A stretch of 64,000 nucleotides of DNA from a bacterium (GTDB taxonomy: Bacteria > Hydrothermota > Tepidihabitantia > SM23-42 > JAOAFX01). Below are positions 5,720 to 21,253 of this stretch, piece by piece. The stretch covers positions 28,804-92,803 of the forward strand of contig DASVHD010000035.1 of NCBI GenBank assembly GCA_036382775.1, in the 5' to 3' direction. The position numbers were made by a program, and so were the translations under genes. Within the stretch, counting starts at the first letter, position 1. Every line of letters starts with the position of its first letter. The notes beneath the pieces are model-generated. The model was not told the origin of the DNA, searched no databases, and saw only the letters and a program-made list of their open reading frames with translations.

Positions 5720-6155
5720 TTACCGGGGTAAGAACCCCGTGCTCATTGGTGTACTCAAGGGCGCGTTCGTATTTCTCGCGGACCTGCTCAGGGAGCTGGA
5801 AATACCGCATGAGCTCGATTTTCTGGCGATCTCAAGCTACAGCGGCAAGACCTCGCGGGGGATCGTTAAGATCAGCGCCGATCTGTCCATTAATATCGAG
5901 GACCGGGATGTCATCCTGGTCGAGGATATCGTGGACACGGGATGCACGCTTCATTACATCCTTGAGAATTTGAAGACGCGCCAGCCACGCAGCCTGGCCG
6001 TATGCGCATTGCTGAATAAAAAGGAGAACCGGCGGACCGAGATACCCCTGACCTACGTGGGGTTCACCATCCCGTCGGTCTTCGTCGTGGGATATGGGCT
6101 TGATTATGAAAATCAATACCGGAATTTACGGTATATAGGAGTGTATGATGGCTAA
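5649..6155 (+). CDS. hpt: Hypoxanthine phosphoribosyltransferase
   Basis: It has the PRPP-binding motif [14 protein letters not shown] and a typical Hpt N-terminus ([16 protein letters not shown]). The start is GTG at 5649. Confidence 0.9.
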
Positions 6156-8007
6156 TAAACCGCCCACACGGACAAGGGCTCTGCAAACAGTGATCTTATG
6201 GACGGTCCTGATCATTGTCGTCTGGATCGGCGTCCAGTATCTGCTATCCCGGAGCGAAAAGGCTGCTGATATACCGTATTCCAAATTCATCCAGGAACTC
6301 AGAAGTAAGAACATAGGCAAGGTCATGATCACCGAGCGGTCGATCAAAGGGACGTTCAAAAACATGCTCCAGATCGACAAAGGAACGTTCACCGAATTTG
6401 TAACGCTCATGCCGTTCGAAGATACCAAGCTCACGGATGAGCTGCTCAAGGGCAATGTCGAGATCGTGGCCAAGCAGAAGTCCTCATGGTTCGAGATCGT
6501 CGCCGGCATAATCCCCTGGCTTTTGGTCATCGCCATCTGGGTCATTTTCTTAAGGCAGATGCAGTCGGGGCAGAACCGGGCGCTTGGTTTCGGGCGGAGC
6601 CGGGCCAAGATCATGTTGGAGAACAAGCCGTCCGCCACGTTCAACGATGTCGCGGGTGTCGAAGAGGCGAAGCAGGAGCTGCAGGAAGTCATAGAATTTT
6701 TAAAGGAACCGCGCAAATTCACCAGGCTGGGCGGCCGCATCCCGAAAGGCGTGCTCCTTCTCGGTCCACCCGGCACGGGTAAAACCCTCATGGCACGCGC
6801 GGTTGCCGGTGAAGCCGGCGTCCCATTCATATCGATCAGCGGTTCGGATTTCGTAGAGATGTTCGTAGGCGTGGGCGCTTCGCGGGTTCGCGACCTTTTT
6901 GAACAGGCCAAAAGGAATTCGCCCTGCATCGTGTTCATCGACGAGATCGATGCGGTCGGCCGGCTGCGTGGGGCCGGTCTCGGCGGCGGGCACGACGAAA
7001 GAGAGCAGACGCTAAACCAGCTCCTGGTCGAGATGGACGGCTTTGTGGTCAACGAAGGCATAATCCTGATGGCGGCCACGAACCGCCCTGATATCCTTGA
7101 TCCCGCGCTCTTGAGACCCGGGCGCTTTGACCGCGTGGTCGTGCTTGACCGGCCTGATATCCGCGGTCGTCAGGGGATACTGAAAGTCCACACGCGCAAG
7201 ATCCCGCTTGATACCGACGTGGACCTTGACGTCCTGGCGCGCGGCACACCTGGATTTTCCGGCGCCGACCTTGCGAACATGTGCAACGAAGCGGCTCTAC
7301 TGGCGGCGCGGCGCAACAAGCAGAAAATCTCCATGGCCGAGTTCGAGGATGCCAAGGACAAGATCCTCATGGGCGTTGAACGCAAGAGCCTGATCATCTC
7401 CGATGACGAGAAAAAGCTGACCGCATGCCACGAATGCGGGCACGTGTTCGTGTCGAAATTCCTCCCGGGCATGGACCCGATCCACAAGGTCACCATTATC
7501 CCTCGCGGCATGGCCCTCGGCGTGACACAGGCCCTGCCCATTGACGAACGGCGCACCTATTCGAAGACCTATTGTTTCAACCAGCTCGCCTATATGCTGG
7601 GCGGCCGGGTCGCCGAGAAATTGATCCTGGGCGATCTATCGACCGGCTCAGGCAATGACATCGAAAAAGCGACCAAACTTGCCCGCAAAATGGTATGCGA
7701 ATGGGGTATGAGCGATAAGCTGGGGCCTCTGACCTATGGCGAAAAACAGGAAGAGATATTTCTGGGCCGCGAGATCGGCATGCACCGCGATTATTCAGAG
7801 CAAACCGCCCGGGAGATCGACGAGGAAGTGAAAAAATTAGTGGAAAGATCCGAAACGATCGCCGAGCAGATAATTTCCAAAAATATCGAGAAACTCAAAA
7901 CGCTGGCCGCAAAACTGCTCGAGAAAGAGATCATGACCGGCGAAGAAATCGACCAGATTCTCTTTGATAAAGATAAAAAAACCGGGATCCACGACGTTAG
8001 CGCGTAA
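6145..8007 (+). CDS. ftsH: ATP-dependent zinc metalloprotease FtsH
   Basis: It has two N-terminal TM segments, Walker A GPPGTGKT, Walker [10 protein letters not shown] and the zinc motif HECGH. Confidence 0.95.
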
Positions 8008-8565
8008 ATGAACAAGAAAAAGATCGAAAAAGCGGTCCGCGCGATCCTTGAAGCGATCGGCGAAGACGTTGACCGCGACGGACTTAAAGACACGCCGCGC
8101 CGGATCGCTGACATGTACGAGGACATTTTTGCCGGCATCAAACAGGACCCGAAAAAGGAACTTAAAACATACCGGACCAAGAACGAAGATGAGATGATCA
8201 TCATCAAGGACGTCCCGTTCTATTCCGTATGCGAACATCACCTGCTGCCATTCCTGGGCAAAGCGCATGTTGTCTACATTCCCAAAGATAACCGGATCAC
8301 AGGTTTTTCCAGTCTGGTTAAAGTCATCGATATCATGGCAAAAAAACCCCTGATGCAGGAACGCCTGACTCATGAGATCGCTGATTTTTTAATGGCGAAT
8401 CTAAAACCTCTGGGCGTGCTGGTCGTGATCGAAGCCGAACACTTGTGCCTGTCCATGATCGGCGTGAAAAAATCCGGCATGCTGACCGTGACCTCCGCGA
8501 TCCGCGGCGCCATGCGTTCAGCCGCGACCCGGGCTGAAGCCTTGTCTCTGATTAAAGGCCGTTGA
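8008..8565 (+). CDS. folE: GTP cyclohydrolase I
   Basis: It has the FolE core motifs (FYSVCEHHLLPF, VVVIEAEHLC). The ATG immediately follows the ftsH stop. Confidence 0.9.
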   Translation: MNKKKIEKAVRAILEAIGEDVDRDGLKDTPRRIADMYEDIFAGIKQDPKKELKTYRTKNEDEMIIIKDVPFYSVCEHHLLPFLGKAHVVYIPKDNRITGFSSLVKVIDIMAKKPLMQERLTHEIADFLMANLKPLGVLVVIEAEHLCLSMIGVKKSGMLTVTSAIRGAMRSAATRAEALSLIKGR

Positions 8566-8596
8566 AACCTCCCGGGGAAATCTAAAAACACATTTA

Positions 8597-8914
8597 ATGC
8601 CTGACGGTTTCATAATAATATACTCGACGTTCCCGAATAAAAAGACGGCCGTTAAAATAATTAAAATGCTAATCGCCGCAAAACTGGCCGCCTGCGGCAG
8701 CATGTTCGAGCTTGATTCGCTCTATGTTTGGAAGAAGAAAACCGAACGCGCGCGTGAATGGGGCGCGTTCATTAAGACAAAAAGTAGGAATTATAAAAAA
8801 GTGGAAGAGTTCATTTTGAGGCATCATCCCTACGAAGTGCCGGAGATCGTTAGCTGGGACATCAAACGGGGTTCGAAGAGCTACCTACACTGGATCAAAG
8901 AAAATACGATTTGA
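8597..8914 (+). CDS. cutA: Divalent-cation tolerance protein CutA
   Basis: It is 105 aa and has CutA1-like sequence (AAKLAACG..., HPYEVPEI). Confidence 0.8.
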   Translation: MPDGFIIIYSTFPNKKTAVKIIKMLIAAKLAACGSMFELDSLYVWKKKTERAREWGAFIKTKSRNYKKVEEFILRHHPYEVPEIVSWDIKRGSKSYLHWIKENTI

Positions 8915-8952
8915 AAGACCTGAGCATATCGGGTTCGACCACATATTCATAA

Positions 8953-9058
8953 TGTGTCATACCCGCGCAGGCGGGTATCCATAGCTGTTTTTTCTGGATT
9001 CCCGTTCCCCGCTTTTGCGGGGACAAGTTTACCCCTGCGGAAGCAGGGGGGAATGACA
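8953..9058 (+). mobile_element. MITE/REP-like palindromic element, family A, copy 1
   Basis: Its imperfect terminal inverted repeats are TGTCATACCCG and CGGGGAATGACA. It contains three internal hairpins (atacccgc/gcgggtat, ccccgc/gcgggg, cccctgc/gcagggg). The 29 nt at 8953-8981 is identical to the reverse complement of 16275-16303. Confidence 0.75.
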
Positions 9059-9092
9059 ATGCAGCGGGAGAGGTCGTTTTGCAAAAGTAAAA

Positions 9093-9117
9093 GGGGCGGC
9101 AAAGCCGCCCCTTTTTT
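9093..9117. terminator. Bidirectional intrinsic terminator between cutA and the lipoprotein gene
   Basis: The hairpin is ggggcggc-aaa-gccgcccc. An A-run lies upstream and TTTTTT downstream, and it sits between convergent genes. Confidence 0.8.
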
Positions 9118-9133
9118 GTTTTTGGTTATCGTC

Positions 9134-9964
9134 TTATTTCGCGATAAGTATCGGCACTCCGGCATTATCCTGGTAGGCGTAGGTGACGTCAACGGTCGCT
9201 CCGGTCGAATCATAAGCATCGACATGGAGTTTTACGTAGTTCTCTTCCTCAGTCACGAAACCGATGAGGTCGCCGACAATGAACGGAACATGATCGTCAA
9301 TGAGATCCCCCGGCGTCAGCTCGGACAGGCTGTCCAATTCCATCTGACCGTAGCTGTGCATCAAGGTCGTTCTTCCATTGGGGCGCCGTGAAGCAGAATT
9401 GACCTGGAGTGTTTCTTCGCCGCCTTGAATGAACCTCTCGAAGAACACATCAGCACCAGGAAATTCATCATTGGTTTCATCAACCAGTGCGCCGGTGGCG
9501 AATGTCAGTCCACAACCAGGTTCATTCATGTTACCAGGCGCGAGTTCGAGAGTCACGGTTACCGTGAACTCGGGTCTCGGCGAAGCCGTCACAAACGGCT
9601 TTGTCGCGTTGTAATCGCCGGCTTTGTCGTCGGTATTCAAAGTACGGACCTGGATATAGTAAACGCTGTCCTGCGCCAGTGGCGTAATCTCGTATGAATT
9701 GGTCGTGATCGGGGTCGCGTTGAACGCACTGAGATCTTCCGCGCTCTCGACCAGGAGTGTGGTGGAATCGGTGGCCACGTACACGTTGTAGCCGTTGAAA
9801 TCCGTGCTATTCTCGATCGTCGTATCCACGGTCCAGACGACCGTCACCGACGTCTCACCCATAATCACGGTATTGATCTCCGGCGCGTTGAGCAGCTCGG
9901 CGCCGCCGCAGCCGGCGATTAATGCCACTGCGATCAACGATGCGAAGGTTATAAATGTCTTCAT
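9134..9964 (-). CDS. Secreted lipoprotein with fibronectin type III-like domain
   Basis: It has a lipobox signal peptide (MKTFITFASLIAVALIAGCGG) and Fn3-like strands (VTVVWTVD..FNGYNVYVA..YYIQVRTLN). An SD (AGGAG) lies 8 nt upstream. Confidence 0.7.
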   Translation of the reverse strand: MKTFITFASLIAVALIAGCGGAELLNAPEINTVIMGETSVTVVWTVDTTIENSTDFNGYNVYVATDSTTLLVESAEDLSAFNATPITTNSYEITPLAQDSVYYIQVRTLNTDDKAGDYNATKPFVTASPRPEFTVTVTLELAPGNMNEPGCGLTFATGALVDETNDEFPGADVFFERFIQGGEETLQVNSASRRPNGRTTLMHSYGQMELDSLSELTPGDLIDDHVPFIVGDLIGFVTEEENYVKLHVDAYDSTGATVDVTYAYQDNAGVPILIAK

Positions 9965-10208
9965 TTTTTCTACTCCTTTTTGTTCTTGCTTTTGCAGTTG
10001 CCCGATCCAGTTGTAAATGACCTGTTCACATACTATGAACAGTATATCTGGCCGCTGCTTTTAAAGCTTATTTTTTTATTGGGACAACGGTTGTTCTCAG
10101 GCACAACCGGCAAAGCCCTTGTTTAGCGTATCACGTATGTTTGGGCTTCCAGCACCACCTCCTCTTTAAGCCCGATCAGACCCAAATATCTTAAAACCTA
10201 CTATGCGT

Positions 10209-10236
10209 ATTATAAGCACAATTTAAGTTTTGTCAA
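10209..10236 (-). promoter_or_regulatory. Near-consensus sigma70 promoter (minus strand) about 240 nt upstream of the lipoprotein gene
   Basis: On the minus strand, TTGACA lies at 10236-10231, followed by a 16-nt spacer and TATAAT at 10214-10209. Confidence 0.6.
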
Positions 10237-10263
10237 GAGGGCTTGGGGGGGCCCAATATTCTC

Positions 10264-10317
10264 CACCCCCTCCTTTTTCCTCCCCCCTCGAGGGGGAGGG
10301 CTAGGGTGGGGGGGGGA
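10264..10317. repeat. GC-rich two-tier palindromic element, family B, copy 1
   Basis: The sequence is caccccctcctttttCCTCCCCCctcgaGGGGGAGGgctagggtggggggggg. It is nearly identical to 15058-15108, ends in a G9 run, and lies just 3' of the helicase gene. Confidence 0.8.
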
Positions 10318-10348
10318 TTAAAAAAGAAGAGTCAACACTCATTCACTA

Positions 10349-12391
10349 CTATGTTTTTGCCGTAATATGCTCGATAACCGACTTCAGCAGTTCAGGATCG
10401 ATCTCCTTCATCCTGACTTTACGCAGGAATTCAAGCAGTCCGCTGATGTCCAGGTTTCTCCAGTGATCCTCGATCTGGTACTCGACCGGCAGGTCATAGA
10501 AAAAAGCGCCGCTGCCCAGGGCATCCTCAAATAGCATCGTCTTTTCGGCAAGTATCCTGCGGATCGTTTCTTCTTTGGGCACCGGGAAACCGCCGTCTTC
10601 CAGTTTGAAGCTATTTATGGTCAAAAGCTTTCCTTCGGCTTCGATCACGTCCTTGCCTTCGGCCATCAGCGCCTCCGCGATGAGGTAGCTGTACAGTGAT
10701 CCGATCACGTGAAAAATATGACTGTTCCTGCCGTCAAAGGCGAACGGGAATTCCATGGGCTCAAGGTCGGGAAAGATGTGCTGCTTGAGAACGACCGATA
10801 GCTGGTAACTGTAGTTCCCCGCGCCCTTACCCTCGAATATCTTCGTGACTGCCGGCGCGCTGCCCGCGTACCGCGCGTATACCTTTTTGTCCGCCTCGCT
10901 CACGCTGACCTTTTCCCAGCACTTACCTCCCAGGATGAACTTCTCCAGCACGTAATATATCCTTCCCACCAGCGCGCCCTGGGCGATATCGAACACATCG
11001 TATTCGCCGAAAGATTTCTCGTTGATATTAGAATGGATCTTGCCGTACGTGATCTTTTTCTCGATCGCGCTGGTCACGAAATAGATGCCGGGTCTGCCCT
11101 CTTTTACGACGCCGTCGCCCATCAGCTTGTAGAATATTTTCTTCACGGTCGGTTCATCGAAAAACCCACCCTGCGCTGGGTCGCATAGCACCTGGTTGAT
11201 GTTTTTAAGCGTCGTGCCGATGCGGCGCCGCTGGTATAGATATGAATAGATCTGCTGGGGTATCACCGACAGCAAAGGCCGGTATTGTCTCTCATAGAGC
11301 AGGCCGCTGCGCGCGCAGTTAAAAAAAACATCGAACAGGATCTGCTCCCAGGAATTAGTATAAGCGCCCAACGCGAAAAGCGTGTTGCTGCGCCGGTTCC
11401 CGCGGCCCACACGCTGGAGCAGCGACGATACCGTGTAAGGAGGCCGGTACAGCGCGACGCAGTCGATATCGCCGATATCGATCCCAAGTTCCAGCGTGGA
11501 GGTGGCAAGCAGCATTGCCCGGTCCGACTGGTTCATGGCCTTTTCCACCTCTTCGCGCCGCGGTTTGGGCAAACTCGCGTGGTGAACGAGCACTTTTCCG
11601 TCAAAAGGCGGCCGGTTCAGCTTCTGCGAGAACCCTTCGACAAAACTGCGCGCGTTAAAGAATACCAGGACCTTTTTCAACCCCCGTTCCTTGACCACTC
11701 CGAACAGTTCTGAAATGAACTTCAAAGCCGGCACGAGCTTATACTCAATCTCCCGCGGCATTTTCAACAGGCAAACTACCGGGTCTGGAAAATACCTCTC
11801 CCCCAGCCTGACATCGTCGATCGTCGCGGATAAGGCGCAGTAGCGGAGCCCGGACCTTACCCTGCGCAGGCGGTTCAGCAGCACTCTGAGCTGGTCCCCG
11901 CGCGGCGTGTTGTCCAGAAGATGGATCTCATCGAGGATAACGTATTTTAGCGCCTTGAATATCTCCGGATGGCGGCTCATCATTGAATCGAATGATTCGG
12001 GTGTAGTCAGTAATATTACCGGCAGGTCTGATGGATCGATACGCGGTCGGTCGCCGGTTTTCCGGCTGATGCTCTTGCCCAAATAAGAGACCGGATCTTC
12101 AAGCCGGCGGAACAGATCATTGACCAGCGCGCGTGTGGGCGATATGTATAGCACCTGGAGCGAAGGGTCCTTATCAGTGACGGTTTCCGCGATGATATTT
12201 TCCAGTACCGGCGCGATCACGGCTTCGGTCTTGCCGGTCGCCGCCGGTGAAATGACGACCGCGTTCTCGCCGGCCAGAATGCGCGGGATCGCCATTTCCT
12301 GGACCGCGGTGAAACTGCCGAACCGGCTGAAAAAAGGTGTCCAGGTCCTTTTAAGCGCGTTTTTTAATTCTTCCGGTGTCATCTTCTGCAC
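10349..12391 (-). CDS. SF2 DEAD/DEAH-box helicase, Lhr-like core with uncharacterised ~280-aa C-terminal region
   Basis: The motifs are Q-motif FTAVQEMAIP, motif I SPAATGKTEA, Ia YISPTRAL, II ILDEIH, III SAT, V ATSTLELGIDIG and VI QRVGRGNR. The likely true start is ATG 12382, which has GGAG about 8 nt upstream; GTG 12391 is the longest ORF. Confidence 0.85.
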   Translation of the reverse strand: MQKMTPEELKNALKRTWTPFFSRFGSFTAVQEMAIPRILAGENAVVISPAATGKTEAVIAPVLENIIAETVTDKDPSLQVLYISPTRALVNDLFRRLEDPVSYLGKSISRKTGDRPRIDPSDLPVILLTTPESFDSMMSRHPEIFKALKYVILDEIHLLDNTPRGDQLRVLLNRLRRVRSGLRYCALSATIDDVRLGERYFPDPVVCLLKMPREIEYKLVPALKFISELFGVVKERGLKKVLVFFNARSFVEGFSQKLNRPPFDGKVLVHHASLPKPRREEVEKAMNQSDRAMLLATSTLELGIDIGDIDCVALYRPPYTVSSLLQRVGRGNRRSNTLFALGAYTNSWEQILFDVFFNCARSGLLYERQYRPLLSVIPQQIYSYLYQRRRIGTTLKNINQVLCDPAQGGFFDEPTVKKIFYKLMGDGVVKEGRPGIYFVTSAIEKKITYGKIHSNINEKSFGEYDVFDIAQGALVGRIYYVLEKFILGGKCWEKVSVSEADKKVYARYAGSAPAVTKIFEGKGAGNYSYQLSVVLKQHIFPDLEPMEFPFAFDGRNSHIFHVIGSLYSYLIAEALMAEGKDVIEAEGKLLTINSFKLEDGGFPVPKEETIRRILAEKTMLFEDALGSGAFFYDLPVEYQIEDHWRNLDISGLLEFLRKVRMKEIDPELLKSVIEHITAKT

Positions 12392-12409
12392 TCTCCGCGC
12401 ATTTTTTTC

Positions 12410-12484
12410 TCTGCGTCCTCTGCGGTGTTATTATTCTGCGTTCTTTGCGTTCTTTTATTTCTGCGGCTTCTGCGTATCTTTATT
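12410..12484. repeat. Degenerate 25-bp tandem repeat x3 at the ATPase B / helicase junction
   Basis: The units start at 12410, 12435 and 12460 and each begins TCTGCGnnnTnTGCG. They span the ATPase B stop (12455-12457) and most of the intergenic spacer. Confidence 0.8.
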
Positions 12485-13771
12485 AAACCTCACCCAGTCG
12501 AACGCCTCGACCGAGAATTTTATGAACTCGCGCAGTTCTTCCTTGTTGATCTTCAGGGCCGAATTCAGAATCGAATCGCTGGTCGGCGGATCGATCTTGA
12601 AAGCCCGGTAGGCGCACTGGTAAACCTTGAGCAGGTTATCGAATAATAATTCGCATTCAAGCCGGCTGAACTTTCTAAGCTGAATGATGTTTCCGGGACC
12701 AGCCCCTTGGGCAAGCCGGTTGGGTTCCTGGGGCGTGGTCGCGAGTACCAGGAACAAGTGCGCGTCTTTGTACAGGTACGGGGTCGGCCTGACCTGGTTA
12801 TGGATCAGATTGCCGTTCACCTTTTTTAGCTGGGCATCGTTGCGCGCGACGCCGATCAATCCCTGCAGAAAATTCATGCCGCGTTCCTTCAAATAATATT
12901 CCCAGACATGGTTTATTTCTTCCGCTTCATCAATGATTATGACCAGCCCGCCCAGACCCGCCGCATGGATCGCGTAGCTCAAGCCACTGAGGATATAGCA
13001 GTAGAAATCGGCTGCGGTCGAAAAATCATACAAAGCCGGAATGACCTGGCCACCCCGAACCCGGAACGGCGCCGAGCGGTCGGTTGCGTAGTTCTTGGTC
13101 GATTCGCCTTCGATCCACTGCCAGAAAACCTCGTTCTTGACTCCGGCATCGTCCCCTTCCATGTCCCTGACCCGCTTCAACACCGGCGTCAGGAAACAGT
13201 GATCATTGATCTCGACCGACGCCAGTTCGGCAAGCAGGTCGCGGAATCCGCGTTCATAGCCATCCTTGATATATCTGAGATTGTAGACCAACTCATGATA
13301 GACCTTTTTAGGCCGGTATGGAGGGGTCTCCTGGACGTGCAGTTCGCAGATCGTCGTGACGAGCCCCTGCCTGAGCGCCTGGTGCCGGATAAATTCAAGG
13401 AGGTGCGATTTTCCGGCGCCGTAGACCCCTTCGATCATGCACAGATCTCCCTGTCCCTGCTTGAGGTCGTCCAGGTGTCTTTGAAGGGTCCGCAATTCTA
13501 TGTCCCGGCCGAACGTGAAATATTCGATATCCTGGTGGGGAACCACGCCCATGCGAAAGGCCTCGAGGATCCGCTTCGATGATATCTCGTCAAGCTGGAT
13601 GTCCTTGTTTGTAATCGAGAGCGGCTTGAGCCATTTCGTGGGCAGCCACAGGCACAGACCGCTCCGAAATTTCACGCGGGACTGGACGCCGTCCCACCGC
13701 GTCTCCAAGACCAGTCCTTCGCCGAATATGTTGTGGGCTACGACGTGGCGGCTAGAATTCTTCTCGCTCAA
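12455..13771 (-). CDS. P-loop ATPase B, DUF2791 / BrxC-BrxD-like (BREX ATP-binding family-like), with small N-terminal beta-rich module
   Basis: It has Walker A GVYGAGKSHLLEF, Walker B LVIIIDEAEE and the pre-P-loop motif RMGVVPHQDIEYFTFGRD. The start is TTG and overlaps the upstream ATPase gene by 20 nt. The family call is from memory of motif and size and was not searched. Confidence 0.7.
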   Translation of the reverse strand: MSEKNSSRHVVAHNIFGEGLVLETRWDGVQSRVKFRSGLCLWLPTKWLKPLSITNKDIQLDEISSKRILEAFRMGVVPHQDIEYFTFGRDIELRTLQRHLDDLKQGQGDLCMIEGVYGAGKSHLLEFIRHQALRQGLVTTICELHVQETPPYRPKKVYHELVYNLRYIKDGYERGFRDLLAELASVEINDHCFLTPVLKRVRDMEGDDAGVKNEVFWQWIEGESTKNYATDRSAPFRVRGGQVIPALYDFSTAADFYCYILSGLSYAIHAAGLGGLVIIIDEAEEINHVWEYYLKERGMNFLQGLIGVARNDAQLKKVNGNLIHNQVRPTPYLYKDAHLFLVLATTPQEPNRLAQGAGPGNIIQLRKFSRLECELLFDNLLKVYQCAYRAFKIDPPTSDSILNSALKINKEELREFIKFSVEAFDWVRFNKDTQKPQK

Positions 13772-15008
13772 CTTCTTCCTTTTCTTTGTCAGTCAACATT
13801 TTAGTCGTGCTGCGCATCATGACGCGGCTGGCGTTCTTGTCGATCTCGGCATTCGTCTCCCGGATCTTCAAGAACGCGTCGATGATGGTAACCACGAAGA
13901 TCCGGCGGTAACTGATGTCCAGGACCTGCAGTTCGAGTGCCGCCTGGACCATGTTGTGAACGGAATTGGACAGCACGGTTTCATCGAAAGTATATGCATA
14001 GGCTTTTTCGAAGATCGTCTTGAGTTTCATGCTCAAATTCCTCAGGAACGCTTCGGCGGGCATGCCGATCTCTTCCAGGTTCACCTTCACGCCCATGGGG
14101 TTGACCTTGGTAAAGCTGCTGCGCAGGCGCTGTTTCAATGCTTCGTAAACCCCGCCGCTTCCTTCCAGGAGAAGGTTCTCGTCCGGGACCGCGTAGAAGA
14201 ACATGGCGCCGGGCAGGCGCGAATTGCCGCACTCATCGACGATCTGCCGCAGGTTATCCAGAGCGCGCCGCTTGTCCTTTGCCGACGAGATGCTCATGCC
14301 CCGTTCTGCCTCGTCGAACAGGAAGATCAAACCGCTGAACCCGAGCACGTTCACGAGCTGGATCAGGCTCCTGAGCATGCGGAACGCGCTCGTGCGGTCG
14401 ATGCGCTCCGAGATCCGGTGCTGAAGCTTTAGTTCGCGCGGGATATCTTCGCCCTTGAGCCACTGTACAAGCGCGCTGAATCCTTCCTCGTCATCGCTGT
14501 CGAGATTGAGCAGCGCGGCTTTGACCGCGTTGGTGAAGCTCGTGCTCTCCAGATTTTTAACGAACGACAGAAACTTCCGGTCGTCCCGAACGCGCTGGTG
14601 CCACTTTCTCAGCAGCACCTCGATGCCGGTCTCCCAGGGTTTAAGCAATTCCTCGGTCTTCAGGGGAAGCGTGATGTTCGCCACGATCTTTTTGTATACC
14701 AGTTCCAGACGGTCGAACGGGCACTCGGTCGCGCTCAGGCTGACATAGCTGGTCACGTAATTGTGCTTCCAGGCGAGGTCGCGCATTAAATAAAGGAAAT
14801 GCGTCTTCCCCCCGCCGTAATTGCCAGTAATGAGTTTGAACGAAGACAGGTTGCACTTCAGGATCCCGTCTAAGTATTCCGTTTCCATGGCCTTGAGATA
14901 CTGCTCGAGGCCGACGCTGAAGTGCTGGATGCCGAATTCGGGCGGCGTGCCAAAGCTTCCGAGCTTATGGATAATGGCTTTTGCGAGAATGGGATCTAAC
15001 TGGTCCAT
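13752..15008 (-). CDS. P-loop ATPase A, paralog of ATPase B (DUF2791 / BrxD-like)
   Basis: It has Walker A GNYGGGKTHFLYL, Walker B LIFLFDEAERG and the pre-P-loop motif FGTPPEFGIQHFSVGLE, which parallels ATPase B. An SD (GAGGTG) lies 5 nt before the ATG. Confidence 0.7.
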   Translation of the reverse strand: MDQLDPILAKAIIHKLGSFGTPPEFGIQHFSVGLEQYLKAMETEYLDGILKCNLSSFKLITGNYGGGKTHFLYLMRDLAWKHNYVTSYVSLSATECPFDRLELVYKKIVANITLPLKTEELLKPWETGIEVLLRKWHQRVRDDRKFLSFVKNLESTSFTNAVKAALLNLDSDDEEGFSALVQWLKGEDIPRELKLQHRISERIDRTSAFRMLRSLIQLVNVLGFSGLIFLFDEAERGMSISSAKDKRRALDNLRQIVDECGNSRLPGAMFFYAVPDENLLLEGSGGVYEALKQRLRSSFTKVNPMGVKVNLEEIGMPAEAFLRNLSMKLKTIFEKAYAYTFDETVLSNSVHNMVQAALELQVLDISYRRIFVVTIIDAFLKIRETNAEIDKNASRVMMRSTTKMLTDKEKEEVEREEF

Positions 15009-15025
15009 TCAATCACCTCAATGTC

Positions 15026-15214
15026 GTCATTGCGAGCACTCTTTGTGCGCAACCTTACACCCCCTCGTTTTTCCTCCCCCCTCGAGGGGGAGGGTAAGGT
15101 GGGGGGGGAATATCTGGAGTCCCGAGGAACGAGGGGAAGCAATCTCATCTGGTGTCTTTTCCTTCCATAGATTGCTTCGTCTCCCTCGATAATCTCGGGA
15201 TTCCTCGCAATGAC
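15026..15214. mobile_element. Composite nested MITE-like element (family C termini enclosing a family B hairpin)
   Basis: The terminal inverted repeats are GTCATTGCGAG (15026-15036) and CTCGCAATGAC (15204-15214). Inside are a family B copy at 15058-15108 and a second inverted pair, gaagcaatct / agattgcttc. Confidence 0.75.
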
Positions 15215-15228
15215 AAGAAAATGAACGT

Positions 15229-16059
15229 TCATAAGAAAGAAATATACGAATAGTACGTACCGTCTCCCTCGTCATTGTCCGGCACCCAGAGTGCGCTTTT
15301 TCTTTCTGTGGTCGCGTCAAAGGTCGCGACGTAAAAACGGATACCTTTGTCGGCAATGCCTGATTTTCTTAAAAGATAGAACATGTAACTCAGCGTATTC
15401 CGCGGGTACTCGCGGAAGTGCTCCTTGCGCGGGTCTTCGAAGAATTTTTCCGGCTGTTGTAAAAGCACGTACCCGTGCAGGACATCCACGATCAGCATTT
15501 TGTCGCCCATGTTCTTACCGGCATACGCTAATCTCTTTTTATAAGCCGTTAAAAGGCCGTTATAAAACTCCTGCCCATCGAATTTTTTAGGAATCAAGGT
15601 ATTGTGGTATTTCTTGACCGCCTCGTAGACTGACTGGGGTTGTAACGGAATCTTACCCTTGATCTTTTCCACCTCGGGTCCGAAAAACAGCTCGGCTTCG
15701 CCGAACTCAAAATTGATCACCAGCGTAAAGATCGCAATGCGCAATTTAGGATACTGGCCACGGACCGCAATGTTGTCTTTTTTGAACATCTCCTTTAATT
15801 TCTCACCGAATTCGAACTTGAAGTCGTCCTTATGCTTTTGTTGTTCCTTGTTTTCGTTTGAATACCAGGTTTTCAGGTCGGCTTTGAGCTGGCTATCCGG
15901 AATTTCGGCAAAAAGCTTCGATATTTCGGCGATTTTCTTCTCGCGCAGGTAGACATTGTCGACTGGCTTTTCCATCAGTTTGGAGTATGAATTGAGCAGT
16001 TTGGTCAGTTTGTTACAATCCCTGGATAATTTCTTTAATTCCTCCAAAATTTCTTTCAT
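15229..16059 (-). CDS. Hypothetical protein, 276 aa, no recognisable family (Lys/Glu-rich helical N-terminus)
   Basis: It is a long ORF with sensible composition, visibly more AT-rich than neighbouring genes, and has no motif I can assign. It is the first gene of the co-directional array. Confidence 0.6.
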   Translation of the reverse strand: MKEILEELKKLSRDCNKLTKLLNSYSKLMEKPVDNVYLREKKIAEISKLFAEIPDSQLKADLKTWYSNENKEQQKHKDDFKFEFGEKLKEMFKKDNIAVRGQYPKLRIAIFTLVINFEFGEAELFFGPEVEKIKGKIPLQPQSVYEAVKKYHNTLIPKKFDGQEFYNGLLTAYKKRLAYAGKNMGDKMLIVDVLHGYVLLQQPEKFFEDPRKEHFREYPRNTLSYMFYLLRKSGIADKGIRFYVATFDATTERKSALWVPDNDEGDGTYYSYISFL

Positions 16060-16064
16060 CCAGT

Positions 16065-16093
16065 ATTATACTTTAAAAGTGATTCATAGTCAA
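16065..16093 (-). promoter_or_regulatory. Consensus sigma70 promoter abutting the 276-aa ORF start (candidate leaderless transcript)
   Basis: On the minus strand, TTGACT lies at 16093-16088, followed by a 17-nt spacer and TATAAT at 16070-16065. Only 5 nt (ACTGG) separate the -10 from the ATG at 16059, and there is no SD. Confidence 0.6.
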
Positions 16094-16164
16094 TTACTCA
16101 TAAGATTACGGTGATAATAAAAAGATGCCGATGATACCCCCTCAGTCGATAGGTGACCGCACAA

Positions 16165-16205
16165 CCTCTCCCCTCCCTAGATGGGAGGGGATAAAGGGGA
16201 GGGTG
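16165..16205. repeat. Family B-like GC-rich hairpin element, degenerate copy 3
   Basis: It has a perfect 9-bp stem, tcccctccc (16169-16177) / gggagggga (16183-16191), with flanking cctc/gagggtg arms. Confidence 0.6.
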
Positions 16206-16214
16206 AAACAAAGA

Positions 16215-16303
16215 TGTCATTCCCGTCCCATATCTATATACAGGACAGATTCCAACGGGAATCCAAGAAAATACTGGATACCCGCCTGCGCGGGTATGAC
16301 ACA
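16215..16303 (-). mobile_element. MITE/REP-like element, family A, copy 2 (inverted relative to copy 1)
   Basis: Its ends are TGTCATTCCCG (16215-16225) and CGGGTATGACACA (16291-16303). The segment 16275-16303 is the exact reverse complement of 8953-8981, and it shares the internal block tggattcccgtt. Confidence 0.75.
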
Positions 16304-16312
16304 ACCCAAAGA

Positions 16313-17296
16313 CTAAAAAGTGTACGTCAACGACAGTTTTCGGTTTTGGGTTTCAAAATCAAATACATCCTCATCGATCCCGATATCTATCTCCAGATTC
16401 AGCACCTTGATCCCTCCGCCAAATGTCCATCCAATACGTTGTCCTTCATAGTCATAGAAATAACCGGTGCGCAGGGAAAGCATTTTAAAATAATTAACTT
16501 CCAAACCTATCGCTTTCCAAGCTTCTTTGAATTCATATTTCAGGTTCTCTCCAAAACTGTTGTTAGAATTAGCAAACATCCCAACGAGAATCTTGGTCAT
16601 TTCGGTTGATAAGGTTATTGATAAATATTCAGACTCATACAGCTTACCGGCTAAACCTAACCTGCTTAAAAGCGGCAACGGATCGCTCGAGCCGGATTCG
16701 GTATATGATATATCAGGACCAAGATTATGAAAAACTAACCCCATGGACAAATACGGTTTGATCTTATAAAGAATATTGAAATCAAACGCAAATGATGTAC
16801 CTGTACCGCCTGATTCGATCCCGAGCTCCGGCATTTTAGCTATTACCCAATCTGCCATCAGGTGATCATAAATTAATTTGCATCCTAACCCCGTTGATAT
16901 ATTTTCTGAAAATTTCCGGGCATAATTCACCTTGAGTGTAATACGATAACTGAAATATCCATCATATTCAGGCATATACATAGATCGGTATCCTGTATCA
17001 AAATAGATAATATCAAAGCCAATTGCGGACTTTGTATCCAGACGCTTAACCCATGCGATATAAATATGTTTCATCCCATCATGCAAACCAGGCAAATAGC
17101 TTGAGTAATTAACAGTTCCTGACCATCTGTCAATGAACGCCAGGCCGGCCGCGTTGTAGTAGTTCGCCGAAGCGTCGTCCGCGATCGCGGTCCAAGCGTA
17201 AGCCATGCCCGTGGCTTTGGCTGAGGGCGGAATCAACATAAAGCAGGCGCCCGGTCTTTGCGCCGAGATCAGTAATACAAGAAACAGACTGGCCAT
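16313..17296 (-). CDS. Outer-membrane beta-barrel protein, PorV/PorQ-family-like
   Basis: It has a signal peptide, the N-terminal motif GMAYAWTAIADDASANYYNAAGLAF typical of PorV/PorQ-type porins, alternating beta-strand pattern and a C-terminal aromatic residue (TYTF). The ATG at 17296 has SD GGAGGT. The longest ORF extends to GTG 17311. Confidence 0.6.
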   Translation of the reverse strand: MASLFLVLLISAQRPGACFMLIPPSAKATGMAYAWTAIADDASANYYNAAGLAFIDRWSGTVNYSSYLPGLHDGMKHIYIAWVKRLDTKSAIGFDIIYFDTGYRSMYMPEYDGYFSYRITLKVNYARKFSENISTGLGCKLIYDHLMADWVIAKMPELGIESGGTGTSFAFDFNILYKIKPYLSMGLVFHNLGPDISYTESGSSDPLPLLSRLGLAGKLYESEYLSITLSTEMTKILVGMFANSNNSFGENLKYEFKEAWKAIGLEVNYFKMLSLRTGYFYDYEGQRIGWTFGGGIKVLNLEIDIGIDEDVFDFETQNRKLSLTYTF

Positions 17297-17325
17297 TTGT
17301 ACCTCCAACACAATCTTGCTATGTA

Positions 17326-17354
17326 ATTATATGCATTGGATGATATCCTGTCAA
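17326..17354 (-). promoter_or_regulatory. Consensus sigma70 promoter for the PorV-like gene
   Basis: On the minus strand, TTGACA lies at 17354-17349, followed by a 17-nt spacer and TATAAT at 17331-17326. Confidence 0.7.
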
Positions 17355-17407
17355 TAATTATCCACCACCCCCACCTTTATCCTCCATTCCACGGGGACAC
17401 CAGTTAT

Positions 17408-17456
17408 CCCTCACCCCTACCCTCTCCCTTTTTAAGGGAGAGGAATAAGGTGAGGG
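17408..17456. repeat. Family B-like two-tier hairpin element, degenerate copy 4
   Basis: The outer stem is ccctcacc / ggtgaggg (8 bp). The inner stem is cctctccctt / aagggagagg (10 bp) with loop ttt. Confidence 0.65.
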
Positions 17457-17512
17457 TTTAATTTTTAATGCTGCCATCAAGGAGGAGGGAGTAAATGTTG
17501 GGAAAATCTCCC

Positions 17513-17540
17513 TTGACTAATAATATTATTTATATATAAT
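17513..17540 (+). promoter_or_regulatory. Sigma70 promoter of rpsL-rpsG
   Basis: TTGACT lies at 17513-17518, followed by a 16-nt spacer and TATAAT at 17535-17540. The leader before the rpsL SD (AAGGAGG) is about 120 nt. Confidence 0.65.
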
Positions 17541-17662
17541 TATGGTTGCTGATTACAGGCTGAAATTACAGCCAAATTTGTGTAATTTGTTCATCGCTGT
17601 CCCGTAAATCGGGATAATCTATTTTTTCATCCCTGTAATCATTCTTTGCCAAAAGGAGGCAA

Positions 17663-18061
17663 ATGCCAACGATCAATCAACTGATAAGGCTGGGCAGGAG
17701 ACAACAGAAGAGCAAGAGCAAGGCTCCGGCACTGACTGGCAATCCACAGCGCCGCGGCGTATGCACGCGGGTTTACACGACCACTCCGAAGAAGCCCAAC
17801 TCAGCCTTGCGCAAGGTTTGCAAAGTAAGGATGACCAACCACTACGAAGTGACCGCCTACATACCCGGTGAGGGTCACAATCTGCAGGAGCACTCGATCG
17901 TGCTCGTGCGTGGCGGCAGGGTAAAGGATCTACCAGGCGTCCGGTATCATATCGTTCGCGGAAAATACGATGCGGCTGGTGTCGAAGGCAGGAAAAAGAG
18001 CCGTTCTCTCTACGGCGTAAAGCGGCCCAAAGAAACCCCGGCCGCCGCCGCTGCCACCTAA
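17663..18061 (+). CDS. rpsL: 30S ribosomal protein S12
   Basis: It starts MPTINQLIR and contains [10 protein letters not shown] and [13 protein letters not shown]. It has a short Ala-rich C-terminal tail. Confidence 0.97.
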
Positions 18062-18084
18062 CCGAACTAACCTAAGGAGGTTCA

Positions 18085-18555
18085 ATGGGACGTCGAAGAC
18101 GGGCACAGATAAGAAGGATCCAACCCGATCCGAAATTCAACAGTATCCTGGTCAGTAAGTTCATTAATAACCTGCAATGGGGCGGCAAGCGGGGGACTGC
18201 GCAGAAGATCCTTTTTAACACACTGGTGCAGATCGAAAAGATCACCAAAGAAGACGGCCTCGCGGTTTTCGAGCGCGCGCTCAGCAACGTGAAACCGCTG
18301 CTCGAGGTCAGACCGAGAAGGGTCGGCGGAGCGACATACCAGATCCCCATGGAAGTCAGGCCGAACCGAAAGGAAAGCCTGGCCATAAAATGGATAATCC
18401 GGGCTGCCCGGGAACGCGCCGAGCATCGCATGCAGGACCGACTGGCGCAGGAGATCATCGCGGCCAGCAAGAACGAAGGAACGGCCATGAAGAAACGGGA
18501 AGAAGTCCATAAGATGGCCGAAGCCAACAAAGCTTTCGCCCATTTCCGCTGGTAA
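18085..18555 (+). CDS. rpsG: 30S ribosomal protein S7
   Basis: It has DPKFNS, the core VRPRRVGGATYQIPMEV and a C-terminus ending AFAHFRW. Confidence 0.97.
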   Translation: MGRRRRAQIRRIQPDPKFNSILVSKFINNLQWGGKRGTAQKILFNTLVQIEKITKEDGLAVFERALSNVKPLLEVRPRRVGGATYQIPMEVRPNRKESLAIKWIIRAARERAEHRMQDRLAQEIIAASKNEGTAMKKREEVHKMAEANKAFAHFRW

Positions 18556-18594
18556 TACCGCGGCTCAAACTAAAGTCAAAAAAACAGATCAAAA

Positions 18595-19551
18595 ATGGAC
18601 ATAAAACTGCAGAAAAGACTCAAACGACCGGCCGAAATAGTCATCAAGGAGTGTCTATCAGTAAAAAAAGGTGAGCGATTTGTCATTATCATCGATGAAC
18701 CGTGCCGCGAGATCGGCTACGCGCTTTTCAATGCGGCCAAGGCGGTCACTGACCCCATCATGGTGGAGATGTTACCTCGCGAGATCCACGGCGAAGAACC
18801 GCCTTCATTGATCGCCGAGCTCATGCGAAACTGCGACGTATTCGTGGCGCCGACCAGCCATTCGCTGACGCACACGCAGGCCCGGATCCAGGCCTGCGCT
18901 CATGGCGCACGCGGCGCGACCATGCCCGGGATCACGCCGGACCTGATGATCCGGGCATTGGATGCCGATTACAGGCGCATCAGCGCCCTGGCTAACAAGG
19001 CAAGCCAGGCGCTCACCCAGGCCCGGCACGTTCTGATCAAGACAAAACTCGGCACACACCTGGAATTGAGCGTCGAGAACCGGACCGGCGATCCGGACAC
19101 CGGGATCATTAATAAACCTAAAGCGTTCTCCAACCTGCCGGCAGGTGAAGCCTACGCGGCACCGGTCGAGGGTAAGTCGAACGGAACTGTCGTGATCGAC
19201 GGTTCGTTCGCGCCCCTGGGATTTTTAAAAAAACCGGTCCGCCTGAAGATCAAGCACGGTGAGATAAAGGATGTCAGCGGCAATTGGGAGATCGCGGCCA
19301 TCTTCAAGAAATACGGCAAGAAAGAACGAATCCTGTGCGAACTGGGCATCGGTACGAATTACAAAGCCGCAATCACGGGCAACGTGCTCGAAGACGAAAA
19401 AGTGCTCGGCACGATCCATGTCGCCTTTGGCAACAACCTGGGTTTCGGCGGAAAGAACAAAGCGTGTATACACCTCGACGGCATCGTGAGGAAACCTTAC
19501 GTCTGGCTCGACGGCAAACCATTTATTGAAAATGGCAGACTGCTGCTTTAA
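18595..19551 (+). CDS. Aminopeptidase, M29 (AmpS/aminopeptidase T-like) family
   Basis: It is 318 aa. Its N-terminus (GERFVIIIDEP) and C-terminal block (LGTIHVAFGNN, CIHLDG) resemble short M29 peptidases. Confidence 0.6.
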   Translation: MDIKLQKRLKRPAEIVIKECLSVKKGERFVIIIDEPCREIGYALFNAAKAVTDPIMVEMLPREIHGEEPPSLIAELMRNCDVFVAPTSHSLTHTQARIQACAHGARGATMPGITPDLMIRALDADYRRISALANKASQALTQARHVLIKTKLGTHLELSVENRTGDPDTGIINKPKAFSNLPAGEAYAAPVEGKSNGTVVIDGSFAPLGFLKKPVRLKIKHGEIKDVSGNWEIAAIFKKYGKKERILCELGIGTNYKAAITGNVLEDEKVLGTIHVAFGNNLGFGGKNKACIHLDGIVRKPYVWLDGKPFIENGRLLL

Positions 19552-19556
19552 GACCG

Positions 19557-21242
19557 TTGAGTAACTTCCTCCTTGTCCTCGTAATCTTATCAGCCCCCAT
19601 AAAAAAAGTCGAATTTACTGGGAACGCTTCGATCCCCAGCCGGGTGTTGTATAACGCCATAATTTCAAAAACAAAAGAAACCTTTGACGAGATCAATCTA
19701 ACCTTTGATGCGAACCGCATCGGCCGCGTTTATTACAACCACGGTTTCTTCGACACCAGGGTTATGACCGGCACCCAGATCGATTCCAATGGCGTCAACA
19801 TCACCTTTGCTGTCCAGGAGGGAAGGCGGCCGCGCATCCAGCGGATTGTCTTTGAAGGCGATACGTACAAGGCATATAAACGACTCCTTAAGATCAAGCC
19901 GCGGGATTTCTTTATTCAACTGAAGATCAAGGATTCTGAGACCGGGATCCGCGACTATCTCCTGGATAAGGGCTACGCGTTGGCCAAGGTCTCCACCTCG
20001 GTCCTGGCTGATTCCGGAGCGCTTGTTTTCAGCATTAACAAAGGGTCGATATATTATATAAAGGATATCACGATCCGGGGCCTTAAAGTCTGCAACCCCG
20101 ACGTGGTCCGGCGCGAGATCACGCTCAAGAAGGGCGACCCCTACAGCAAGTCGAAGATACGCACCAGTCAACGCCGGATCTACAGTCTCTCATTTTTCGG
20201 CACGGTCGATGTCGAGATGCTGACCATATCGCCGGACAGCATTGAATTGATCTTCAATATCCGCGAGCTCAAATCACGGATCCTCAATTTTGGTTTCGGC
20301 GTTACGATCCCGCCAAGTTTCCTGGTCTCCTTCGGTATCGAGGAACTCAACCTATTCAATATCGGCCACCGGTTCTTGATCCGGCCGTCATTCCGTATAA
20401 AGACCGAACGGGCATGGGAGGCTAAGCTGGAAGGCCGCTACATAGTTCCCAACATCACACCGGCCAGGCTGACGCTCACGTTGCTGCCGTTCTACTGGCG
20501 CGAGGACACCAAGGCATACGTGCGCAAGACGACCGGCGGTGAGATCCGGCTTTCAAAGATATACACCGATCACATCCAGGTCACCTTTGCCAATAAATAC
20601 AAGTATGTCGATTATATGGCCCGCACCACCGATGTCGACACGGCAAAGGGCATTACCAACAGCATCAAGCTTGAACTGATGGCGGATTACCGCGATGAAT
20701 TTTTCAACCCGAAACGCGGACTGTACTGCACGCCGTTCATCGAATACGCAGGTGGCATACTGGGTGGGCGCAACGATTACATCCGGCCGGAAATGGAGTT
20801 GCGTCTTTTCAAATCAATATATTTCACCACGATCGCCCAGCGGCTGAGGGTCGGAATGATGATCTCCACCGGCAATCTGGCGACCGATGAGAAATATTCG
20901 ATCGGCGGCCAGTATTCAGTGCGGGGTTATGATGAAAAATCGATCGGGCCGGACAGCCTGGCCATCGACAGCACCCACTACGGCAACGTGATCATCAATT
21001 ATAACCTGGAATACCGGATCCACCTGCCTCTTAGCACCGGAGTACTTGGTTTTCTGGATATTGGATATGTTGACAACACTTTCAACGTGCAGAACAGCGA
21101 TTACCTGAAATTCAGTGCCGGCTTCGGCCTTCGGTACTATTCGCCGATCGGTCCGGTGCGCGCGGACCTGGGTTTTCCGCTAAATGCGGTCAACGGTGAA
21201 CGTCGGCCCCAGATCTATGTCGGTATCTATCACATTTTCTAA
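19557..21242 (+). CDS. tamA: Omp85-family outer-membrane assembly protein, TamA/BamA-like
   Basis: It has POTRA-like repeats (IQRIVFEGD, IKDITIRGL) followed by a surface-antigen beta-barrel ending in an aromatic residue (GIYHIF). Its size fits TamA, and it is followed by a TamB-like gene. Confidence 0.7.
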   Translation: MSNFLLVLVILSAPIKKVEFTGNASIPSRVLYNAIISKTKETFDEINLTFDANRIGRVYYNHGFFDTRVMTGTQIDSNGVNITFAVQEGRRPRIQRIVFEGDTYKAYKRLLKIKPRDFFIQLKIKDSETGIRDYLLDKGYALAKVSTSVLADSGALVFSINKGSIYYIKDITIRGLKVCNPDVVRREITLKKGDPYSKSKIRTSQRRIYSLSFFGTVDVEMLTISPDSIELIFNIRELKSRILNFGFGVTIPPSFLVSFGIEELNLFNIGHRFLIRPSFRIKTERAWEAKLEGRYIVPNITPARLTLTLLPFYWREDTKAYVRKTTGGEIRLSKIYTDHIQVTFANKYKYVDYMARTTDVDTAKGITNSIKLELMADYRDEFFNPKRGLYCTPFIEYAGGILGGRNDYIRPEMELRLFKSIYFTTIAQRLRVGMMISTGNLATDEKYSIGGQYSVRGYDEKSIGPDSLAIDSTHYGNVIINYNLEYRIHLPLSTGVLGFLDIGYVDNTFNVQNSDYLKFSAGFGLRYYSPIGPVRADLGFPLNAVNGERRPQIYVGIYHIF

Positions 21243-21253
21243 ATCGCACGACC

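Follow-up and report, generated by a model that had tools for sequence, protein, structure and literature searches.

A minus-strand cassette of four genes in a 64 kb stretch of bacterial DNA (contig DASVHD010000035.1 of assembly GCA_036382775.1; this whole stretch is called the window below) encodes a protein that matches no described family (P1), two ATPases (A and B) and a superfamily 2 (SF2) helicase. Judged from sequence comparison, the cassette is a widespread and apparently undescribed relative of the Shango and BREX (bacteriophage exclusion) type 2 modules, and a member of neither. Our preferred reading, to which we assign a probability of roughly 0.55, is that it originated as a system for defence or surveillance of the same kind as Shango and BREX-2. 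A preliminary description of this DNA had suggested either a new system or a strongly divergent offshoot of Shango or BREX-2. The architecture does appear undescribed, and versions outside candidate division WOR-3, the bacterial phylum of this DNA, do have defence genes as neighbours, but a defence role in this particular organism has become less certain, because the cassettes of WOR-3 share synteny with cutA and diverge in step with their flanking genes.

The open reading frame (ORF) list of the window confirms the gene arrangement described earlier. Four co-directional ORFs lie on the minus strand, namely P1 (15229-16059, 276 amino acids (aa)), ATPase A (13752-15008, 418 aa), ATPase B (12455-13771, 438 aa, TTG start) and the helicase (10349-12391, 680 aa, GTG start), with the start of ATPase B falling inside the end of ATPase A in an overlap of 20 nucleotides (nt; 13752-13771). 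Both ATPases have intact Walker A and Walker B motifs and belong to the Pfam family PF10923 (BrxC_BrxD), to which they had previously been assigned; at a gathering threshold of 22.2, ATPase A scores 154 bits (E 5.7e-45) and ATPase B 98 bits (E 9.8e-28). The motifs GNYGGGKTHF and LIFLFDEAE of ATPase A, and GVYGAGKSHLL and VIIIDEAEE of ATPase B, are kept in 48-50 orthologs. The best PADLOC model for both proteins is BrxD (1.2e-39 for A, 3.2e-24 for B), followed by the Shango protein SngB (2.7e-21 and 3.2e-15), and ATPase A can be regarded as a standalone BrxD-family ATPase with ATPase B as its divergent paralog. Neither of them reaches the level of the NCBIfam BrxD equivalog NF033438 (134 bits for A and 84 bits for B, against a cut-off of 350). 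The two share 25% identity, about as much as either shares with canonical BREX-adjacent BrxD (24-25%). The earlier view of a duplicated ATPase is right in that there are two PF10923 paralogs, but at 25% identity the duplication is not a recent one, and by their sequences A and B are an ancient, conserved paralog heteropair. ATPase A is the most conserved protein of the cassette. BrxD itself is an AAA+ ATPase of the ORC/Cdc6 clade, tightly linked to the helicase BrxHI, and has been proposed to be a loader or activator of that helicase (PMC12839542).

The fourth protein is a DExH helicase of the BrxHI, SngC and Lhr type, with DEAD and Helicase_C domains in Pfam. It contains the motifs AATGKTE, DEIH, SAT and QRVGRGNR, and motifs I, II, III and VI are conserved in its orthologs; taking ATPases and helicase together, the motifs highlighted in the preliminary description are all present and kept in 31-50 orthologs. 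Its earlier characterization as Lhr-like and BrxHI-related also holds. The PADLOC model of BrxHI matches residues 24-511 (1.7e-63), leaving the C-terminal ~170 residues unmatched, that of SngC matches residues 18-509 (2.2e-61), and the closest relatives of solved structure are the Lhr entries 5v9x (3.8e-24) and 7lhl (1.4e-23), which cover residues 11-194 only. Compared directly with a BREX-adjacent helicase, the protein is 32% identical in the core only, and its C-terminal region is not alignable with BrxHI. This C-terminal domain (10352-10774, minus strand, approximately residues 540-680) has no Pfam match, and a single-sequence model of it reaches a predicted local distance difference test (pLDDT) score of 38. 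The ~140 residues concerned are found in long-form helicases only, which occur in WOR-3 and in two more distant lineages (loci L057 and L059; L-numbers denote the loci compared), and they are absent from the ~530-aa helicases of defence islands. A rule by which long helicases would mark housekeeping loci and short ones defence islands fits the ten loci with visible context, but is broken by the versions found on plasmids, whose ~700-aa helicases carry an unrelated C-terminus. Helicases of the Lhr type are 3'-5' translocases that favour RNA:DNA hybrids.

The four genes form a unit over a wide range of divergence. When one genome per species was scanned, 44 loci came up. Almost all are from WOR-3 or Stahlbacteria metagenome-assembled genomes, with seven closed chromosomes included; one belongs to a Methanocorpusculaceae archaeon, in which P1 is 25% identical. 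P1, A and B are adjacent and in constant order in every one of these loci. More distant P1 representatives (22-31% identity), looked up individually, all come with the same four genes, and the gene order holds from 92% down to ~22% P1 identity, across WOR-3, the Methanocorpusculaceae archaeon and lineages known from metagenomes. Spacing is tight, with a median gap between P1 and A of 11 nt, overlaps of P1 and A in ten cases and the 20-nt A/B overlap in 17 loci. The pairwise identities of the four proteins rise and fall together (r 0.91-0.98 over 29 loci; 0.91-0.94 for P1 against A, B and the helicase). The preliminary description had made genomic linkage elsewhere a test of its proposal, and the proposal survives it, because the cassette genes keep their order in more than 50 loci of unrelated lineages.

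Linkage of the helicase is looser. In 27 distinct loci it directly follows B; 13 of the 40 distinct WOR-3-type loci (L006-L009, L011, L012, L015, L017, L018, L021, L024, L046 and L047) have no helicase within 2.3-7.5 kb. A three-gene form therefore exists, a point that the preliminary description missed, and the helicase is not obligatory in cis. This form has no conserved substitute gene after B. In five of the 13 loci a fructose-bisphosphate aldolase/phosphatase-like gene is found upstream in common.

The same data bear on whether P1 belongs to the system at all. One could argue that it is a chance neighbour, and that the functional unit consists of the two ATPases and the helicase only, given that P1 in the window has a promoter of its own and is followed by a 220-nt spacer with a hairpin element before A. 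We find this scarcely credible: in every locus the gene directly upstream of A is P1, at a median distance of 11 nt and with ten overlaps, its divergence tracks that of A, B and the helicase, it stays with A and B even where the helicase is missing, and remote versions on plasmids keep a P1 homolog in the same position.

The defence reading draws support from contexts of the cassette outside WOR-3, where in six loci the expectation that it would be found near known defence genes has been borne out. In an archaeon (L048) it directly follows genes for a type I HsdR (4e-183), a GmrSD_N+Schlafen protein and a Schlafen/HATPase protein; in L055 it adjoins a Lamassu LmuB-like ATPase (6e-46), and in L058 it is located between a type IIG methyltransferase/Eco57I enzyme and a GmrSD_N protein. 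The cassette of L054, a metagenome contig, adjoins a type IIG fragment and prophage genes, and its own helicase is split into two ORFs of 117 and 262 aa (13492-15017 of that locus), for which reasons it appears to be a decaying copy. Two remote versions reside on plasmids. Genes DESTI_RS28080-28095 on pDESTI.01 of Desulfomonile tiedjei DSM 6799 make up the version that adjoins AbiEii/AbiEi, while that on plasmid3 of Aulosira laxa NIES-50, with genes NIES50_70940-70970, directly follows a protein with an alkaline-phosphatase domain (PglZ-like), a BrxD-like ATPase and a helicase, so that this plasmid carries two ATPase-helicase modules in tandem, a BREX-like locus and the cassette (L061/L062, positions 4762-24287 of the record). 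Two large hypothetical proteins of 1206 and 1327 aa are encoded upstream on the Aulosira plasmid. In both plasmid versions the product of the first gene, 279 aa long, is remotely homologous to P1 (hhalign probability 97% and 96%). We found no version of the cassette in phage records or viral contigs by tblastn and pattern scans.

The arrangement in Aulosira, where the cassette adjoins a BREX-like locus, and the fact that BrxD and BrxHI are the best PADLOC matches could also be taken to mean that the cassette descends from a BREX type 2 or Shango system whose methyltransferase, PglZ or TerB partners were lost, and is now a decayed remnant that no longer works as a unit. This is highly improbable, and the conservation data effectively refute it. 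The cassette recurs without BREX or Shango partners in more than 50 loci across phyla, its catalytic motifs are intact and its proteins co-evolve tightly; A and B are as distant from canonical BrxD as from each other and fall under the equivalog cut-off, and P1 is a conserved family of its own.

One feature of ATPase B had escaped the preliminary description. The protein has a conserved N-terminal domain of ~55 aa (approximately residues 8-55; 13607-13750, minus strand), with no counterpart in A, in PF10923 or in the PADLOC models of BrxD and SngB. When a profile of this N-terminus, built from 25 ATPase B orthologs, was compared with the whole PDB, it matched only UvrD/PcrA helicases: 7egt_B (7e-4), 6yi2_A (3e-3) and 7egs_B (4e-3), followed by 4c2t, 5dma and 9dqs (0.11, 0.29 and 1.1), and five of these six entries are isolated C-terminal fragments. 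Eight of the 25 orthologs match the Pfam family PF21196 (PcrA_UvrD_tudor; best 0.0028). The signature that is common to this domain and the PcrA/UvrD Tudor domain, V-x-H-x-x-F-G-x-G ... V-x-F ... G, is present in 49 of 50 ATPase B proteins, with a W variant in L058. The signal is weak but specific, and assigns the N-terminus of ATPase B to the Tudor domains of the PcrA/UvrD type. It is through their Tudor domain that PcrA and UvrD dock on RNA polymerase and on other partners (PMC5397179, PMC8318588, PMC7585439), with binding of the polymerase beta subunit or of the helicase interaction motif known for both (PMC5397179, PMC8318588); there it is placed C-terminally on an SF1 helicase, whereas in ATPase B it is placed N-terminally on an AAA+ ATPase.

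P1 had been called an orphan that could be assigned to no family. It is indeed without a match in Pfam, PADLOC, NCBIfam or PHROGs, but it is not an orphan, being the founding member of a large unannotated family. There are 156 close full-length homologs (42-55% identity), the named ones from candidate division WOR-3, and a profile search of 1.84 billion cluster representatives (50% clustering) yielded 729 representatives of the family, 468 of them at E <= 1e-10 and nearly all ~280 aa long. None of 37 divergent members matches any Pfam or PADLOC family. An AlphaFold2 model based on an alignment of 50 homologs is confident (pLDDT 91, predicted template modelling score 0.79) and predicts a coiled-coil region of three long N-terminal helices (residues 2-93), then a beta meander of five strands (99-138) and a C-terminal alpha/beta domain (141-276). 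Foldseek returned nothing significant for this model (best E 0.44 in PDB and 0.044 among the viral proteins of BFVD), and comparison of the P1 sequence profile with PDB sequences gave coiled-coil noise only. Winged-helix-like Foldseek matches to ORC, Cdt1 and ScpA were weak and non-significant, and were not used.

Two specific identities of P1 were considered and rejected. It had been proposed to check whether P1 is a TerB protein or another known part of Shango or BREX, and Pfam, PADLOC and AlphaFold2 combined with Foldseek identified no such relationship; as for TerB in particular, P1 gives no Pfam or PADLOC match and its predicted fold is a different one. A PD-(D/E)xK-like nuclease, for which 'FDATTERK' was the candidate motif, was rejected as well, D248 and its neighbours not being conserved in the divergent set. 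Across that set the only invariant columns are G, P and A, and no catalytic residues are conserved, from which we infer that P1 is a non-enzymatic adaptor or sensor. Three longer members of the family (P0187, P0191 and P0213; for example L053, 580-1989), 360-469 aa in length, have an N-terminal domain of the Rho_N/SAP type, which hints at an association of P1 with nucleic acid. Searching with P1 relatives by tblastn gave no match in plasmids (query P0200) and none in phages.

These components can be arranged into a tentative mechanism. Through the 20-nt overlap of their genes, A and B might be made in fixed proportion and form a hetero-oligomer, which would load or gate the 3'-5' Lhr-type helicase on DNA or RNA:DNA hybrids. 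The Tudor domain might dock the complex on RNA polymerase, or on another protein with the 'helicase interaction motif' of the PcrA/UvrD system, and P1 would serve as structural adaptor or sensor, in the place taken in Shango by the TerB protein SngA. The complex would then use ATP to remodel or unwind invading or aberrant nucleic acid rather than cut it, since the cassette encodes no nuclease. In mobile lineages such an activity could provide defence against phages or plasmids, while in WOR-3 the module would have been fixed for a long time and passed on vertically.

Several observations weigh against a defence or surveillance system. In ~11 species the cassette is followed by the same fn3 lipoprotein gene and mostly then by cutA, as in the window, and it co-diverges with these lipoprotein and cutA flanks (r 0.7-0.9). 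With mean identities within WOR-3 of 0.74 for A, 0.70 for B and 0.65 for the helicase, against 0.60 for CutA, the cassette behaves like a vertically inherited core operon. The ten genes flanking it in the window are all housekeeping genes by Pfam (Hpt, FtsH, FolE, CutA, the fn3 lipoprotein, PorV-like, RpsL, RpsG, an M29 peptidase and BamA), with no defence gene among them, and PADLOC gives no match for any of the ten largest ORFs in the rest of the window. These same searches confirm the reported absence of the partners known from related systems (PglX, PglZ, PglW, PglY, TerB or a nuclease). No tRNA gene, integrase or Rfam element is found near the cassette, and no effector, whether nuclease, toxin or membrane protein, is recognisable within it. 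Defence genes adjoin the cassette in only six loci (L048, L055, L054, L058 and the two plasmids), and not in the window, in WOR-3 or in L057 and L059. To this can be added the 13 of 40 WOR-3-type loci in which the helicase is missing near P1, A and B, the second ATPase of the plasmid versions, which lacks the Tudor domain, and the weak scores of the Tudor profile itself (E 7e-4 to 4e-3), highly specific though they are.

One could instead suppose that in WOR-3, and in the L057 and L059 lineages, the cassette performs housekeeping genome maintenance while tethered to RNA polymerase, dealing with R-loops, transcription-replication conflicts or transcription-coupled repair, and that the copies in defence islands are offshoots of this maintenance function or its ancestral source. 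Vertical inheritance, the kept synteny and a conservation at least equal to that of the flanking housekeeping genes all speak for this view, as does the presence of the cassette in all seven closed WOR-3 chromosomes. Its neighbours are housekeeping genes not only in the window but also in the WOR-3 locus L004 (thrS-infC-rplT-pheST) and in L057 and L059, and in L057 the P1 gene overlaps an upstream inositol-phosphatase gene by 4 nt. The Tudor domains of UvrD and PcrA serve roles of this kind (PMC8318588, PMC5397179), and the best NCBIfam match of the helicase is TIGR04121, a ligase-associated DNA-damage-response DEXH helicase (4e-54, residues 28-336 only). That match, however, remains far under the curated cut-off of the model (183.5 against 850 bits), outside the cassette its three recognisable components are known only from defence systems, the same cassette is found elsewhere in defence islands and on plasmids, and 13 WOR-3 species have no helicase beside P1, A and B. 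We give a housekeeping role in WOR-3 a lower but appreciable probability.

Defence and housekeeping are not mutually exclusive if the module was domesticated. A bolder and rather doubtful version of this idea is that an anti-phage-type module became fixed phylum-wide as a vertically inherited machine tethered to RNA polymerase, made up of a hetero-oligomeric, ORC/Cdc6-like ATPase pair, the new-fold adaptor P1 and an Lhr-type helicase. If this were true, the cassette would be either a domesticated immune system engaged in housekeeping, transcription-coupled genome maintenance, or a form of 'core' immunity that guards RNA polymerase against takeover by phages, and P1 would define a new protein fold family.

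The signals around the genes in the window add some detail on expression. The consensus promoter reported upstream of P1 is a sigma-70-like TTGACT-17-TATAAT (16065-16093, minus strand) that agrees with the consensus at 11 of 12 positions. Its -10 hexamer ends 6 nt ahead of the P1 ATG, which leaves no space for a Shine-Dalgarno sequence, and the P1 mRNA is therefore probably leaderless. Promoter-like sites number 8 in the region where 4.8 +/- 2.3 would be expected, which is no marked enrichment. A perfect sigma-70 consensus, TTGACA-16-TATAAT (10209-10236, minus strand, 12 of 12 positions), precedes the fn3 lipoprotein gene (9134-9964). A repeat search identified a 51-nt, GC-rich palindromic element in two copies that share 90% identity; the 64 kb contain no further strict copy. 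One is in the spacer between P1 and A (15058-15108) and the other 35 nt past the helicase stop codon (10264-10314). The first copy accounts for the lengthening of that spacer to 220 nt, against a median of 11 nt across 52 loci, and may uncouple transcription of P1 from that of the ATPases; the second may be a terminator hairpin.

A second family of repeats consists of a perfect 29-nt inverted repeat, TGTGTCATACCCGCGCAGGCGGGTATCCA, with arms at 8953-8981 and 16275-16303. Each arm is a GC hairpin followed by a T-run; one lies between the convergent cutA and lipoprotein genes, the other just past the stop codon of the PorV-like gene, and together they enclose 7.3 kb containing the fn3 lipoprotein gene and the cassette. 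The arms might be thought to delimit a mobile unit, an idea that we rejected: other species keep the cutA-lipoprotein-helicase synteny, and for that reason the arms look like terminator hairpins of the REP (repetitive extragenic palindromic) kind. With two families of short palindromic repeats at the locus and two copies of each, we do not recover the accessory patch rich in miniature inverted-repeat transposable elements that the preliminary description had placed here; the WOR-3 cassette is syntenic and as conserved as its flanks, neither a tRNA gene nor an integrase is nearby, and the base composition is unremarkable. The gene just upstream of the cassette (16313-17311, minus strand) encodes a PorV-like outer-membrane protein (type IX secretion) and lies in a low-GC stretch (0.40-0.43). 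Among WOR-3 genomes, the upstream side of the cassette is variable, and the downstream side, with the lipoprotein gene and cutA, is kept.

To our knowledge, no part of BREX type 2 or Shango is less well understood than the BrxD-BrxHI pair, for which we know of no structure or mechanism. In the cassette this module exists in a minimal form that is self-contained and occurs very widely, and because no methyltransferase, PglZ or TerB protein accompanies it, it provides a cleaner system in which to study the ATPase-helicase pair. The ATPase heteropair, the Tudor domain, with its hint of docking on RNA polymerase, and the modelled P1, which has no known structural relative, all yield concrete, testable hypotheses, and the remote versions in Desulfomonile tiedjei DSM 6799 and Aulosira laxa NIES-50, both in culture, could be cloned directly. 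The vertical inheritance of the cassette in WOR-3, set against its residence in defence islands and on plasmids elsewhere, is also relevant to the question of how roles pass between immune modules and housekeeping machines that act on nucleic acids.

We did not find the architecture described in PADLOC-DB 2.0, Pfam, NCBIfam or the literature searched, which included surveys of BREX diversity (2026) and of defence modularity (2025), and the resemblances to known systems are all partial. With the ORC/Cdc6 loaders the likeness is by analogy only: ATPases of the ORC/Cdc6 clade of AAA+ proteins (PMC12839542) are encoded beside a helicase, and the presence of two paralogs suggests a hetero-oligomeric loader, but ORC/Cdc6 loaders act with a ring hexamer, whereas the cassette helicase is of the monomeric SF2 type and there is no sign of origin binding. 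The Lhr and ligase-associated helicases have the DExH SF2 core motifs in common with the cassette helicase, but the alignment is limited to the N-terminal ~190-335 residues, the proteins differ in their C-terminal domains, and neither a ligase nor an MPE phosphoesterase accompanies the cassette.

As regards BREX type 2, BrxD and BrxHI are the best PADLOC matches, and ATPase and helicase form a tightly linked pair. Both ATPases belong to the Pfam family of BrxD but stay below its equivalog level, the match to BrxHI extends over core residues only and leaves the C-terminus of the cassette helicase unmatched, and neither PglX, PglZ, PglY/BrxC nor PglW was found in searches of the window or among the called genes of related loci. 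The overall plan is reminiscent of Shango, where a small, non-enzymatic first gene is likewise followed by a DUF2791/PF10923 ATPase and a helicase of the SngC/BrxHI type, with no methyltransferase and no recognisable nuclease. An Lhr-like SF2 helicase such as SngC is present, and both ATPases match SngB, if more weakly than BrxD. The first gene is different: SngA is a TerB-domain protein, whereas P1 and 36 divergent relatives match neither TerB in Pfam nor SngA in PADLOC, and no TerB structure is among the Foldseek PDB matches of the P1 model. Shango, finally, consists of three genes with a single SngB, while the cassette has four, including two ancient ATPase paralogs, the second of which carries the Tudor domain.

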